Source: an uncultured Planctomycetota bacterium
Lineage (GTDB): Bacteria; Planctomycetota; PUPC01
Direction: 5' to 3'
Assembly: GCA_964505325.1 (NCBI GenBank)
Contig: CAZDHT010000001.1
Span: 10,430-74,429, forward strand
Length of the DNA stretch: 64,000 nucleotides
The notes beneath the pieces were generated by a model that saw only the letters and a list, made by a program, of their open reading frames with translations, was not told the DNA's origin and ran no database searches. The position numbers and the translations under genes were made by a program. Shown here piece after piece: positions 12,097 through 54,748 of this stretch (positions are counted from its first letter, which is position 1; each line of letters starts with the position of its first letter).

Positions 12097-12185
12097 GGGC
12101 TCTATCAAGACCCTGGTGGGGCAGGCATTCTTGCCTGCCACGGGGCAGACAGGAATGTCCGCCCCACTGTTTTTTTGGAGCTCGC
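12097..12185 (+). repeat. intergenic repeat element, copy A (perfect palindrome GGCAGGCA-ttct-TGCCTGCC plus a second GC hairpin and T-run)
   Basis: ~85-90% identical to the reverse complement of 36308-36392; shares modules with 24940-25055; sits between convergent genes. Confidence 0.7.
12142..12177 (+). terminator. rho-independent terminator-like hairpin + TTTTTTT (part of repeat copy A)
   Basis: GGGGCAGACA-gga-TGTCCGCCCC stem followed by ACTGTTTTTTT, directly after the stop of the DUF2062 gene. Confidence 0.5.
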
Positions 12186-24939: not shown

Positions 24940-25055
24940 GCCGGTGGGGCAGGCATTCCTGCCTGCCCGACGGCCGAGAGGAAGGGACTCCGCCGAAGCG
25001 GCTATGTCCCTCTCGCGAAGGCGGATGTCCGCCCTACCCTTTTGTTGGAGCGCCT
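24940..25055 (+). repeat. intergenic repeat element, copy C (palindrome GGCAGGCA-ttcc-TGCCTGCC, a ~45-nt insert, then the GATGTCCGCCC...TTTTGTTGGAGC module)
   Basis: Shares the 5' and 3' modules of copy A (12097-12185); lies between rplK and rplA. Confidence 0.65.
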
Positions 25056-25079: not shown

Positions 25080-25757
25080 ATGAAGAGAAGCAAACGGTAT
25101 CGCGCGGCGGAAGGGACGGTGAGCCGCGACAAGAGCTACCCGCTGGCCGAGGCCCTGAACGTGATCAAGTCGCAGCCCTCGGCCAAGTTCGACGAGACCA
25201 TCGAGATCGCGGTCAGCACCGGCCTCGACCCCAAGAAGCCCGATCAGTCGGTGCGCGGGACGATTTCGCTGCCCAAGGGCATCGGCAAGACGCTGCGGGT
25301 CATCGCGTTCTGCCCGGAGGACCAAGCGGAGGCGGCCAAGGCGGCGGGCGCCGTCGAGGCGGGCGGCGAGGAACTGGTGCAGAGGGTGAACGACGGGTGG
25401 CTCGACTTCGACGTGGCCATCGCCGCCCCGTCGATGATGCGGTTCGTCGGCCGGCTCGGCCGGCTCCTCGGCCCGAAAGGTCTGATGCCGGCGCCCAAGT
25501 CCGGCACGGTCACCGAGGACGTCCCGGCCGCAGTCAGCGAGTTCGCCGCCGGCAAGATCGAGTACCGCGTCGACGCCGGCGGCAACATCCACGCGCCGGT
25601 GGGAAAGAAATCTTTTCCCCCCGAGGATCTGACGGCGAACATCGAGGCACTCATCGACCAGATCCAGCGGTCGAAGCCGTCCACCGCCAAGGGCAAATAC
25701 ATCAAGAGAATCTGCCTGTCGTCCAGCATGGGACCAGGCGTCACGGTGGCAGTGTAG
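25080..25757 (+). CDS. rplA: 50S ribosomal protein L1
   Basis: Full-length L1 homology (KRYRAAEG...GKYIKRICLSSSMGPGVTV). Confidence 0.95.
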   Translation: MKRSKRYRAAEGTVSRDKSYPLAEALNVIKSQPSAKFDETIEIAVSTGLDPKKPDQSVRGTISLPKGIGKTLRVIAFCPEDQAEAAKAAGAVEAGGEELVQRVNDGWLDFDVAIAAPSMMRFVGRLGRLLGPKGLMPAPKSGTVTEDVPAAVSEFAAGKIEYRVDAGGNIHAPVGKKSFPPEDLTANIEALIDQIQRSKPSTAKGKYIKRICLSSSMGPGVTVAV

Positions 25758-25764
25758 GCAATTG

Positions 25765-25784
25765 CGGATTGTGGATTGCGGATT
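25765..25784 (+). promoter_or_regulatory. rplJ leader: tandem (C/T)GGATTG x3 repeat
   Basis: CGGATTGTGGATTGCGGATT; exact reverse complement of 27141-27159 in the rpoB leader. Confidence 0.5.
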
Positions 25785-25793
25785 TGTTGCGGG

Positions 25794-25813
25794 GTAACAC
25801 TTCAGCCAAGTGA
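25794..25813. repeat. 22-nt hairpin motif, site 3 (reverse orientation; 5' of rplJ)
   Basis: GTAACACTTCAGCCAAGTGA is the exact reverse complement of 12967-12986. Confidence 0.6.
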
Positions 25814-25838
25814 CCCGCAGCCCGAAATGGAGTCCTGA

Positions 25839-26396
25839 ATGCCCAGCAGGCTCAACAAGCTAGTCGTCGATGAGTTGAGCGCGAAGTTCCGCGAGGTGGA
25901 CACCTGCTTCTTTGTGGACTTCACCGGCTTGTCCGGCCGCAAGGCCGCCGACCTGCGTTACCAGATCCGCTCGGCCTGCGGAGGAGACACCACACTGACC
26001 GTCGTCAAGACATCGCTCGCCAGGCGGGCGCTCGCCCTGGCTGCCGACGGACAGGACCTTGCGGACGGGCCTGTGGGCGAATACCTGGAGGGGCCCACCG
26101 CGATCGCCTACGGCGCGGGTGACCCCGTGCTCCTCGCCCGGACCCTGGCGGACTGGGCCAGGAAAGAAGCGTCGATACGGTTCAAGGGCGGGTTACTGGT
26201 CGGCCGCCCGCTGGCGCCCGATGCCGTGGCCGAGCTGGCGAAGATCCCGCCCAAGCCCATTCTGATGGGGCACGTCGTCGGGATGATCGCCGCGCCGCTC
26301 ACCTCGCTGTTGAACGTCGGCAACGGGCTGATCCGCAAGCTCCTCGCCCTGTGCGATGCGTTGGCCAAGAAGAACTCCGAAGCGGATTCTGAGTGA
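25839..26396 (+). CDS. rplJ: 50S ribosomal protein L10
   Basis: L10 homology; preceded by an in-frame 3-codon uORF (ATGGAGTCCTGA) abutting the start. Confidence 0.9.
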
Positions 26397-26410
26397 AAGG
26401 AGAAGAGAGA

Positions 26411-26815
26411 ATGTCCGAAGCAACACCCGAACCGGCCGGCAAGGTGGCCGAAGCGCTCGAACTGATCTCGGGCATGACGGTTCTCGAATTGTCCGAGTTC
26501 GTCAAAGCCGCCGAGCAGAAGTTCGGCGTGACCGCCTCCGCACCGATGGCGGTGGCTGCGGGGCCCGGCGCCGCCGGCGCGGACGCCGCGGCAGCGGAGG
26601 AGAAGAGCATGTACGACGTCGTCCTCGTCGCCGCCGGAGACCAGAAGCTTCAGACGATCAAAGTCGTCCGGCAGCTCACCACGCTCGGCCTGAAAGACGC
26701 GAAGGCGCTGGTCGACAGCGCGCCCAAGCCGCTGGCGGAAGGCGCTTCGAAGGAAGAGGCCGACAAGATGGTGGCGGCGCTGGAAGAGGTCGGCGCCAAG
26801 GTCGAACTCAAGTGA
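26411..26815 (+). CDS. rplL: 50S ribosomal protein L7/L12
   Basis: Start chosen at MSEATPEP (AAGGAG RBS); Ala-rich hinge and C-terminal [41 protein letters not shown]. Confidence 0.9.
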
Positions 26816-26884
26816 TTCTGGACTGTGCATTGCAGATCGCGCAGAGCTGATTCCGCAATCCGAGGTCCGCAGTGGAGTGCTGCC

Positions 26885-27109
26885 ATGAGGTTTTTCAAGA
26901 TCATCGTGGAGAAACACCTTGACGGCTACGTGGCATACCCGCTGGGACTGAAGGGAATTGTCGTCGGGCAAGGAGAAACCTACGAAGATGCTCTTTCCGA
27001 CGTAACGTCCGCAATCCGATTTCATGGCCAGACGTTCGGAAAGGAAGCATTGGAGGTAGAGCCGCGGATTGTTGAAGCCTTCGTCGCCGAAGCAGGGATA
27101 GAAGCTTGA
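26885..27109 (+). CDS. HicB-like (UPF0150 family) antitoxin-type small protein inserted between rplL and rpoB; no HicA partner
   Basis: MRFFKIIVEKHLDGYVAYPLGLKGIVVGQGETYEDALSDVTSAIRFH resembles the HicB/UPF0150 N-terminal fold; GC ~52% versus ~66% in neighbours. Confidence 0.5.
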   Translation: MRFFKIIVEKHLDGYVAYPLGLKGIVVGQGETYEDALSDVTSAIRFHGQTFGKEALEVEPRIVEAFVAEAGIEA

Positions 27110-27140
27110 TGGTTGTGGACGGCGGACGCGATCTGCTCAC

Positions 27141-27172
27141 GCAGCCTTGGATCCGCAATCCACAATCCGAAA
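27141..27172 (+). promoter_or_regulatory. rpoB leader: CAATCC/AATCC x3 repeat, complementary to the rplJ leader repeat
   Basis: ATCCGCAATCCACAATCCGAAATCCGAAATGG; 19-nt exact reverse complement of 25765-25784; a degenerate third copy at 26848-26879 upstream of the hicB-like gene. Confidence 0.5.
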
Positions 27173-27190
27173 TCCGAAATGGAGTGCGCA

Positions 27191-31603
<4,413 letters not shown>

Positions 31604-36307: not shown

Positions 36308-36392
36308 GCTCTGGCAAAGCGGTGGGGCGGAGGTCCCTGTCTGCCCGTGGCAGGCAAGAATGCCTGCCCCACCAGGGTCTTGACAGGCCCTT
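36308..36392 (-). repeat. intergenic repeat element, copy B (reverse orientation; palindrome GGCAGGCA-agaa-TGCCTGCC)
   Basis: Its reverse complement aligns at ~85-90% identity over ~85 nt with 12097-12185; lies between rpoC and rpsL. Confidence 0.7.
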
Positions 36393-36786: not shown

Positions 36787-36804
36787 GCAACGGAATTCGC
36801 CACT

Positions 36805-36919
36805 GATGAACACGGATGGACACTGATAAGAGCCTATCCAAGAAGGTGCGCTGGTCTTGTGGCACGGTTTTTGGATAGCCTCAGACAACAAATCCGTGTT
36901 TATCCGTGTTCATCCGTGG
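36805..36919 (+). promoter_or_regulatory. structured S12-S7 intercistronic leader: AACACGGAT at 36805-36819 pairs with tandem ATCCGTGTT repeats at 36892-36919
   Basis: 13-15 nt complementarity enclosing ~90 nt; ATCCGTGTT x2 + ATCCGTGG tandem immediately upstream of the rpsG RBS. Confidence 0.4.
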
Positions 36920-36946
36920 CTGGTCTCTGAGAACAAGGGGTTGGGA

Positions 36947-54592: not shown

Positions 54593-54670
54593 GGGCGATT
54601 AGCTCAGTTGGTTTAGAGCGCTTGCTCGACAAGCAAGAGGTCGGTGGTTCGAATCCACTATCGCCCACCA
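54593..54670 (+). tRNA. tRNA-Val (anticodon GAC), apparently with C at position 33
   Basis: GGGCGAT/ATCGCCC acceptor, GCTCAGTTGG D-arm, anticodon loop TCGACAA, GGTTCGAATCC T-arm, CCA encoded. Confidence 0.65.
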
Positions 54671-54748
54671 GATCAGCTATCAGCGGTCAGCGGTCAGCTA
54701 TCAGCCCGCTCAAAGCTGATAGCTGATAGCTGATAGCTTTTATAAGGA
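54671..54748 (+). terminator. long imperfect hairpin built from heptamer repeats (TCAGC/GCTGATA x3-4) followed by TTTTAT; intrinsic terminator or attenuator 6 nt before the thrS RBS
   Basis: GATCAGCTATCAGCGGTCAGCGGTCAGCTATCAGC...GCTGATAGCTGATAGCTGATAGC TTTTAT. Confidence 0.5.

Follow-up and report, generated by a model that had tools for sequence, protein, structure and literature searches.

Opposed heptamer arrays in the rplJ and rpoB leaders of an uncultured Planctomycetota bacterium and their predicted long-range RNA duplex

Bacterial ribosomal protein and RNA polymerase genes are analysed here in a 64-kb stretch of DNA from an uncultured Planctomycetota bacterium (contig CAZDHT010000001.1), hereafter referred to as the window. 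The untranslated leaders of rplJ and rpoB carry two segments of 19 nucleotides (nt) that are exact reverse complements. Both segments are opposite-orientation tandem arrays of one heptamer (sense TTGCGGA; antisense TCCGCAA/TCCGAAA), and their complementarity is genuine and far above chance. A duplex between the two leaders, as first proposed, is the predicted fold in the window strain, but it does not hold as a conserved long-range device, and relatives have a local partner for the rpoB-leader array directly after rplL. With moderate confidence, we read the locus-specific heptamer arrays as intercistronic RNA hairpins of a type frequent in this lineage, which would act in processing or stability, the long-range duplex of the window resulting from a spacer interrupted by hicB(A).

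Results

The sense array, A1 (25761-25784, + strand), has 3.4 copies of ATTGCGG (TTGCGGA-TTGTGGA-TTGCGGA; Tandem Repeats Finder, period 7) and begins 4 nt past the stop codon of rplA. Its segment 25765-25783 (CGGATTGTGGATTGCGGAT) is the 5' half of the 19-nt match. The original prediction had placed the array, written as CGGATTG-TGGATTG-CGGATT, at 25765-25784, where it is indeed found. The reverse complement reported upstream of rpoB, ATCCGCAATCCACAATCCG, is also exact, but it lies at 27151-27169, and the position given for it, 27141-27159, was 10 nt too low. This 3' half of the match belongs to the antisense array B2 (27150-27180, + strand; ATCCGCA-ATCCACA-ATCCGAA-ATCCGAA-AT), which Tandem Repeats Finder delimits as 27151-27180 with 4.3 copies. 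As had been described, the segment is extended by more units, the AATCCGA repeats continuing to 27180. The end of B2 adjoins the Shine-Dalgarno sequence of rpoB (GGAG, 27181-27184), and the sequence after B2 is GGAGUGCGCAAUG. A1 and B2, an intact pair 1367 nt apart, both lie in untranslated spacers on one strand of a tight gene series.

Chance was estimated from 100 dinucleotide-preserving shuffles of the whole window. Matches with up to three mismatches were observed 3 times, against a mean of 0.02 in the shuffles, none of which (0 of 100) reached 3. The doublet GGATTGYGGATT, with at most one mismatch, has 6 occurrences, all inside 25766-27175, where 0.49 would be expected. The lone hexamer GGATTG is not enriched (23 in the window and 32.7 expected). 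In the 64 kb, the TTGCGGA doublet is confined to three spacers of the rplJL-rpoBC operon, and no copies of the heptamer arrays were found outside 25761-27180.

The two leaders were co-folded, as had been suggested, in a 1471-nt RNA covering 25745-27215. The minimum-free-energy and partition-function calculations describe equilibrium, without kinetics, ribosomes or co-transcription, and in the predicted equilibrium fold the long-range A1:B2 pairing prevails. Segment 25765-25783 pairs with 27169-27151; the predicted probability is 0.68 for the terminal pair and 0.98-1.0 for the other 18, and the helix is lengthened by two G-U pairs, 25784/27150 and 25785/27149. The energy of the A1:B2 duplex is -38 kcal/mol, compared with -26 kcal/mol for the best local competitor of A1, segment A3 (27111-27127). 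A duplex of A1 with a second antisense array, B1, has -33 kcal/mol, and the local hairpin A3:B2 folds with -34 kcal/mol (z-score, z, -1.6). With its 19 Watson-Crick and 2 G-U pairs, the predicted A1:B2 helix is as long as an RNase III substrate, which spans about two turns (20 base pairs, bp, or more) of near-perfect double-stranded RNA (dsRNA).

Relatives of the operon were found through an alignment of 40 RplJ homologues, while a scan with RplJ alone gave none; their contigs are labelled L with a number. The RplJ homologues place the window in an uncultured Planctomycetota lineage, in which about 40 relatives have 49-97% identity, with the next drop to 36%. Contigs L162 (97% RplJ identity), L081 (96%), L161 (85%) and L091 (60%) carry three or four TTGCGGA-type units directly 3' of the rplL stop codon and TCCNNAA units just before the rpoB Shine-Dalgarno sequence. 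All four lack the hicB-like open reading frame (ORF) of 74 amino acids (aa) that the window has in this spacer. The two arms of the rplL-rpoB spacer arrays adjoin each other in L091 and have 132 nt between them in L081. The predicted fold of the L081 spacer has the heptamer arrays as its outer stem, and this local stem, with about 19 pairs and one 1-nt interruption, should also be long enough for RNase III. For B2 of L162 and L081, three partners are possible, and their energies are much the same. With the corresponding values at -38 and -26 kcal/mol, the window strain is the one in which the folding model clearly favours the long-range helix at equilibrium.

Uninterrupted Watson-Crick pairing of the rplJ leader with the final 57 nt of the rpoB leader extends over at most 19 nt in the window (22 if G-U pairs are admitted), 11 in L162 (14 with G-U), 10 in L081 (17 with G-U) and 7 in L161 (11 with G-U). 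In ten other lineage genomes the longest run is 5-10, and cross-genome controls average 4.5-7.6. The original prediction had named lack of conservation as its own refutation, and the run does fall from 19 to 10-11 at 96-97% RplJ identity, to 7 at 85% and then to background. Judged from these comparisons, the long-range pairing belongs to a narrow clade rather than being a conserved device. Within the species of the window the genotype is reproducible, with contigs from 10 samples. The number of A1 units is 3 in 10 of 10 same-species contigs (10 samples) and 2 in L162, L081 and L161. Between the 96-97% strains the arm regions have diverged less than the spacer centres. Farther away, L163, L167, L168 and L002 have separate complete local hairpins in the rplJ leader and in the rplL-rpoB spacer, made of different units.

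This decay and these separate local hairpins, with their different units in both spacers, argue against a dedicated, selected duplex of the rplJ and rpoB leaders that loops out rplJ-rplL(-hicB) as a processing or attenuation switch, like the RNase III stems flanking ribosomal RNA (rRNA). So do L162, in which A1 lacks the TTGTGGA unit though B2 is unchanged, and the hicB-free relatives, in which the local partners are energetically equal and would form first in transcription. Such a duplex has on its side the 19 exact nt with two G-U pairs, predicted with probabilities of 0.68-1.0 in the full fold, and the persistence of A1 throughout the clade as far as 85% RplJ identity. In the window as in L081, the variant TTGTGGA of A1 fits TCCACAA of B2. 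A1 of L081 makes a 17-bp run with one G-U pair, where the local array after rplL (A2) has a C-A mismatch, and the hicB-bearing strains, with a degenerate A2, have three A1 units and not two. Taken together, we see a small chance that the duplex was selected for this purpose.

The 74-aa ORF (26885-27109, + strand) is a probable HicB-family antitoxin, judging by the names of its homologues. The protein has 6446 homologues with 75-99% identity in several phyla, many of them called HicB family by their sources (NCBI, JGI); searches of Pfam, NCBIfam and PDB gave no match. An adjacent hicA (PF07927) is missing in the window, where just 81 nt separate the hicB stop codon from the rpoB start, and a full hicB-hicA pair occupies the same rplL-rpoB site in L172 and L168-L170. 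The RplJ protein of L172 is the same as in the window, and the DNA of the two is 99.4% identical as far as the hicB stop codon; hicA is lost in the window strain. In L168-L170 identity is 86% for hicB but no more than 73-78% for the flanking rplJ/rplA DNA.

The left end of the hicB cassette is array A2 (26816-26848, + strand), a degenerate sense array (TTCTGGA-CTGTGCA-TTGCAGA-TCGCGCA) directly 3' of the rplL stop codon. It has the same degenerate form in L168, and it aligns to the intact (TTGCGGA)3-4 arrays of L081, L162, L161 and L091. A2 is followed by B1 (26849-26872, + strand), an antisense array of about three degenerate units (GATTCCG-CAATCCG-AGGTCCG-CAG) that was absent from the original prediction. 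B1 ends 1 nt before the Shine-Dalgarno sequence of hicB (GGAG, 26874-26877), and it moves with the cassette, being present in L168 and L172. From the degenerate sense array through the antisense array to the TGGAGTGCTGCC-ATG junction, this left end is near-identical in the window and L168, whose own spacers are built from other units than the cassette arrays. At the right end, the cassette duplicates the last ~35 nt of rplL. Segment A3 (27111-27127, + strand; GGTTGTGGACGGCGGAC), which can pair locally with B2, is conserved in L081 and L162 and may derive from the 5' end of hicA. From their sequences, the hicB-free relatives appear to keep a decayed 3' end of hicB (...GCCGAAGGCGAAGCTTGA) and possibly a 5' remnant of hicA.

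The TGGAGT start context said to be common to rplJ, the hicB-like gene and rpoB is present at all three starts. For hicB and rpoB it represents common descent of the arm-plus-Shine-Dalgarno junction, because the hicB leader travels with the cassette into L168, whose own rpoB leader is different.

The HicB(A) family also recurs co-directionally inside housekeeping operons (window 26816-27109; L172 1267-1861; L168 5932-6528; L173-L178; L179-L181). Its sites are rplL/rpoB, with ~35 nt of the rplL 3' end duplicated; carA/carB, with ~70 nt of the carB 5' end duplicated; and panC/panD, where hicA is internally deleted. Many same-species contigs end just past hicB, which fits a strain polymorphism at this site. 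In L172, GGTAACACTTCAGCCAAGTGA at 1861-1885, 3' of hicA, equals the loop region of the inner hairpin of the rplJ leader (window 25794-25814), and this copy is fused to the duplicated rplL 3' end.

Across the lineage, as read from the sequences, the recurring design is a tandem arm of 7-10-nt units at, or within ~10 nt of, the upstream stop codon (or transfer RNA, tRNA, end) and a complementary arm that ends just before a Shine-Dalgarno sequence. The centre between the arms often has a GC hairpin. The units differ by locus, and by species at orthologous spacers. The rplJ leaders of L163, L167 and L168 share CGTTAAT/ATTAACG (also written CGTTATT) with the rplL-rpoB spacer of L002, whose rplJ leader has AATGGAC/GTCCATT. 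GGTGTTC/GAACACC is found in the rplL-rpoB spacer of L163, L094, L089, L167 and L168, ATGACGA/TCGTCAT in the rpoB-rpoC spacer of L167 and L168, and ACAGGATA/TATCCTGT in L085. There are more repeat-armed cases in rplK-rplA and rpsL-rpsG spacers. The rpsL-rpsG spacer hairpin of the window has arms of three 10-nt units (CACGGATGRA-like, 36799-36827; ATCCGTGTTY, 36892-36920) that are 64 nt apart, with a predicted energy of -67.9 kcal/mol and z of -7.0; the orthologous spacer of L167 has heptamer arms of unrelated sequence. Another hairpin (54671-54738; z -4.1), directly 3' of tRNA-Val (54593-54670), consists of five GATCAGC-like units and then 3.6 copies of AGCTGAT. It is terminator-like and is followed by TTTTAT and the Shine-Dalgarno sequence of a thrS-like ORF. 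Folds in the lineage that are stabler than dinucleotide shuffles have z of -2 to -7, and those of its examples beyond these two of the window have -2 to -5. The design is not universal among the relatives, since L165 has compact spacers without repeat-armed hairpins.

A count based on Tandem Repeats Finder in 214 kb of lineage DNA gave 10 reverse-complement array pairs, against 0 complement-only and 0 reverse-only controls. The same count in 795 kb around rplJ in other phyla gave five non-redundant cases. Cases in other phyla include L142 4918-5068, L066 3838-3939, L016 2476-2553 and L104 7-83, with fold z of -2.9 to -10.4. L142, from a soil metagenome bacterium, has (AGTGATT)9.6 in its rplL-rpoB spacer (z -10). 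In the rplJ leader of L066, from Chloroflexi, the repeat stem (z -9.9) encloses a terminator-like hairpin with a U-run, and Candidatus Methylomirabilis has a repeat-armed hairpin in its nusG-rplK spacer.

That only reverse-complement pairs occur is difficult to reconcile with the arrays being neutral products of replication slippage, the inverted copies being due to duplication nearby or to a switch of template, and the complementarity being without function. The consistent placement of the arms, from the stop codon (or up to ~10 nt off) to the Shine-Dalgarno sequence, in orthologous spacers with unrelated units argues against neutrality as well, and so does the better conservation of the arms than of the spacer centres. 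The differences of two versus three units between near-identical strains are of the kind that slippage produces. Units also homogenise independently of the opposite arm (TTGCAGA twice in L091; TCCGAAA twice in all B2 arrays), and an excess of heptamers is documented (Mrazek 2007 as cited in PMC4679880; PMC4692102). We regard wholly neutral arrays as unlikely.

It is quite improbable that the arrays are multivalent protein-binding sites, for CsrA, ribosomal protein S1, the L10-L12 complex or a DNA-binding factor, with the inversion secondary. Many sense arms do have GGA every 7 nt, and it recurs in those of the window, L002, L085, L084 and L091; the antisense units by the Shine-Dalgarno sequence (AAUCCGA) are A-rich and conserved across the clade, and heptamer arrays just 5' of start codons in Beggiatoaceae have been proposed as such sites (PMC4679880). 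However, the units vary between the spacers of one genome and between species at one spacer, so no single sequence-specific binder fits; several arms lack GGA altogether (GATCAGC, CGTTATT, CGGTGAT), and there is no match to the Rfam L10 leader. As a further candidate, RNase E was considered: each sense unit fits RN-WUU, the RNase E consensus. This reading of GGAUU was rejected because other loci have unrelated units.

The occurrence of one unit family in different spacers and genomes (CGTTAAT, listed above), and the transfer of the A2/B1 arrays with the hicBA cassette into L168, could suggest copies of a small mobile element, or of an element like repetitive extragenic palindromes (REP) or miniature inverted-repeat transposable elements (MITE), in which the complementarity of opposite copies would be trivial. 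A gene for a Y1 transposase (IS200/RAYT-like, PF01797) lies in L165 at 1218-1889, ~4.5 kb upstream of tuf, although L165 itself has no repeat-armed spacers. Within the 64 kb, the TTGCGGA doublet is limited to the three operon spacers, the arrays are bounded by neither terminal inverted repeats nor target duplications, and the real dispersed palindrome of the genome is a different 20-mer. An origin from mobile copies is thus very improbable.

That palindromic 20-mer, GGCAGGCATTCYTGCCTGCC, has four copies in the window against 0 expected (two in 12120-12163, one at 24948-24967 and one at 36349-36368). It lies in spacers including rplK-rplA and rpoC-rpsL, is also present in L007, L081, L171 and L182, and forms a REP-like family.

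The + strand gene series of the window comprises tuf, tRNA-Trp, secE, nusG, rplK, rplA, rplJ, rplL, the 74-aa ORF, rpoB, rpoC, rpsL, rpsG, fusA and S10/spc genes. The genes at the locus, all on the + strand, are rplJ (L10; 25839-26396), supported by PF00466 homologues, rplL (L7/L12; 26411-26815) and rpoB (27191-31603), whose ATG at 27191 is used in relatives.

Between A1 and rplJ, the leader has an inner GC hairpin in the predicted fold (25786-25821, + strand; GUUGCGGG...CCCGCAGC), which is identical in L081 and L162 and replaced by another hairpin in L161. This replacement led us to reject the inner hairpin as a mimic of the L10/L11 site of 23S rRNA (CAGCCA loop). It is followed by an antisense-type unit, CCGAAAT, and the rplJ Shine-Dalgarno sequence (GGAG, 25829-25832) within 25822-25838 on the + strand. 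The junction CCGAAATGGAGT of this leader recurs before rpoB. Here the original prediction had seen a three-codon upstream ORF, ATGGAGTCCTGA (peptide MES), abutting the rplJ start. Translation of this ORF is not borne out: it has no Shine-Dalgarno sequence of its own before its ATG at 25827, and the ATG overlaps GGAG, which is the Shine-Dalgarno sequence of rplJ and lies 6 nt from the start codon of that gene. At the matching position before rpoB, L081 has CTG and L161 has ACG, and L163 and L002 lack the motif. The supposed ORF is Shine-Dalgarno context.

A search of Rfam at the gathering threshold, and with E-values up to 10, gave no match in 25758-25838 or 26816-27190, whether to the L10 leader (RF00557) or to other ribosomal protein leaders; the region gave only tRNAs and noise. 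In the same two segments, no site resembling an intrinsic terminator or attenuator (GC-rich hairpin with U-run) was found. No sigma-70-like promoter was found in the scanned region, which is weak evidence as the consensus used may not fit Planctomycetota promoters.

The rpoB gene itself has an in-frame insertion of 232 codons (27293-27999), past RpoB residue ~34, between ...REFLQADT and RGLEGIF.... It is seen in one contig and is missing in L081 and L162, which have 97-99% identical DNA on its 3' side, and in every other relative. In a low-confidence single-sequence AlphaFold model (pLDDT 46, too poor for a fold search) the insert is all-alpha. Its similarity to Pfam PF21790 (OGG-like) is below threshold (E 1.4e-4; 22 bits against a cut-off of 27). 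A word-indexed search of 5.8 billion proteins gave no homologues of the insert, a full HMMER search gave four weak, uninformative matches, and an exact-sequence look-up of the window RpoB had no match. The insert belongs to a low-GC island (26800-28000; 0.53-0.58, against 0.65-0.72 in the flanks) that also includes hicB, the rpoB leader and the first ~100 nt of rpoB. Segment 27101-27292 is 91.7% identical to L081, compared with 96-99% on both sides. The base composition and these identities suggest that 26800-28000 is a recombined or acquired block.

Discussion

Since complementarity and position are all that the unrelated units have in common, their common denominator is a hairpin, most plausibly in RNA. 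By analogy with known operons, we favour intercistronic dsRNA as a determinant of processing or stability. In the reading that we prefer, the ancestral partner of B2 would have been A2, the array directly after rplL. A hicB(A) toxin-antitoxin cassette would then have filled the spacer, with A2 becoming degenerate. With A2 degenerate and hicB(A) in the spacer, A1, located 1.37 kb upstream, is the strongest complement of B2 left. On a common transcript, the predicted equilibrium structure would be the 19+2-bp duplex around rplJ-rplL-hicB. The stems would serve as dsRNA processing or stability determinants, and RNase III-type cleavage could uncouple the rplJL and rpoBC messages; co-transcription, formation in vivo and cleavage are each presumed here. 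The repeat make-up is most simply explained by slippage, in line with the copy-number differences between near-identical strains. The arms would grow by replication slippage and be copied onto the other arm.

Several observations weigh against this explanation. A1 has no strong local partner even in the hicB-free relatives, so that the hicB insertion alone fails to explain A1. Pairing on a shared transcript would have to reach across 1.37 kb of translated RNA, and the local A3:B2 hairpin would form first during transcription. Not every spacer fold is significantly above shuffles: z is -1.0 for the L081 spacer, -0.85 for the rplJ leader of the window and -0.83 for the rplL-rpoB spacer of L167. 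In L161 (85%) and L091 (60%) the arms are only roughly complementary, with at least one mismatch per unit. The arrays persist despite such imperfect arms, which fits their maintenance by slippage or homogenisation as well as selection on pairing. Duplex energies of own arms and cross-species arms in the rplL-rpoB spacer discriminate weakly; own arms are stabler than the cross-species mean in 15 of 20 genomes, but the sequences are GC-rich, the arm windows overlap where spacers are short and the controls include related genomes, all of which confound the result, and it does not count as evidence.

A wider proposal is that these hairpins form a distinct 'repeat-zipper' class in nusG-rplKAJL-rpoBC and rpsL-rpsG spacers of this lineage, which would also have arisen independently in Chloroflexi, Methylomirabilis and other uncultured bacteria. 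The unit would be free to vary as long as the arms stay complementary, giving a register-tolerant dsRNA device for processing or coupling, and in the window hicBA would have rewired it into a 1.4-kb duplex that excises rplJL-hicB. We consider that this proposal has a modest chance of being right.

If the stems are processing or stability elements, an uncultured phylum-level lineage would balance the expression of ribosomal proteins and RNA polymerase without an attenuator of the Escherichia coli (E. coli) type. Tandem repeats would then offer a simple evolutionary route to long dsRNA, and the unexplained excess of heptamers in bacterial intergenic DNA would have a function. The strains provide a natural experiment: some have hicBA, some hicB only and some neither, the rplJ leader has two or three units, and the stem that is possible differs accordingly.

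Comparison with known systems

In E. coli, the rplL-rpoB intercistronic region is said, in work ascribed to Barry, Squires and Squires and to Downing and Dennis, to combine a partial terminator with a hairpin processed by RNase III. The window resembles it in having a structured untranslated spacer at the same operon position, presumably with the same purpose of uncoupling ribosomal protein and RNA polymerase expression. It differs in that no terminator-like site was found in the spacer, its arms are tandem heptamers and its sequence is unrelated, and cleavage would be expected here by analogy. RNase III stems also flank 16S and 23S rRNA, where a duplex of about 20 bp or more is formed by sequences 1.5-3 kb apart. 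The predicted A1:B2 duplex would likewise bracket a functional unit; unlike those stems, it would enclose translated mRNA, and its pairing is kept only within a narrow clade. REP palindromes and bacterial interspersed mosaic elements (BIME) are similar in being intergenic hairpins within operons that can stabilise upstream mRNA. They are high-copy and of fixed sequence, and the REP-like family of the window is distinct from the heptamer stems.

Closer parallels are found among heptamer repeats, which are the commonest long simple repeats in many bacteria according to the summary of Mrazek 2007 in PMC4679880. GGGAATC arrays number ~185 in Xanthomonas, and 70-75 per genome are arranged in convergent pairs that could form stem-loops (Rehm et al. 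2015, PMC4692102). These are also intergenic tandem heptamers near the end of the upstream ORF, often in inverted pairs, with copy numbers that vary between related genomes. They use one G-rich unit genome-wide and have been studied as G-quadruplex formers. The window arrays have at least two tandem 7-nt units, as the Xanthomonas arrays do, but not a single genome-wide unit (GATCAGC and a 10-mer are used elsewhere in the 64 kb). Each spacer has its own unit, the units are not G-tracts, and the hairpins span the spacer roughly from stop codon to Shine-Dalgarno sequence.

Direct repeats of the heptamer TAACTGA lie 5' of start codons in marine Beggiatoaceae, cyanobacteria and Bacteroidetes, also within ribosomal protein operons (MacGregor 2015, PMC4679880). 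Like these and the cyanobacterial STRR heptamers, the window arrays are short, abut start codons and occur in ribosomal protein operon spacers. The TAACTGA repeats differ in having one genome-wide unit and no predicted secondary structure, and in being direct only, with one inverted case in the Guaymas 'Maribeggiatoa'. No description of repeat-armed, locus-specific spacer hairpins was found in the literature searched. What sets these hairpins apart from the known heptamer systems is the combination of locus-specific units, a reach from stop codon to Shine-Dalgarno sequence, and orthologous spacers that carry unrelated sequences.

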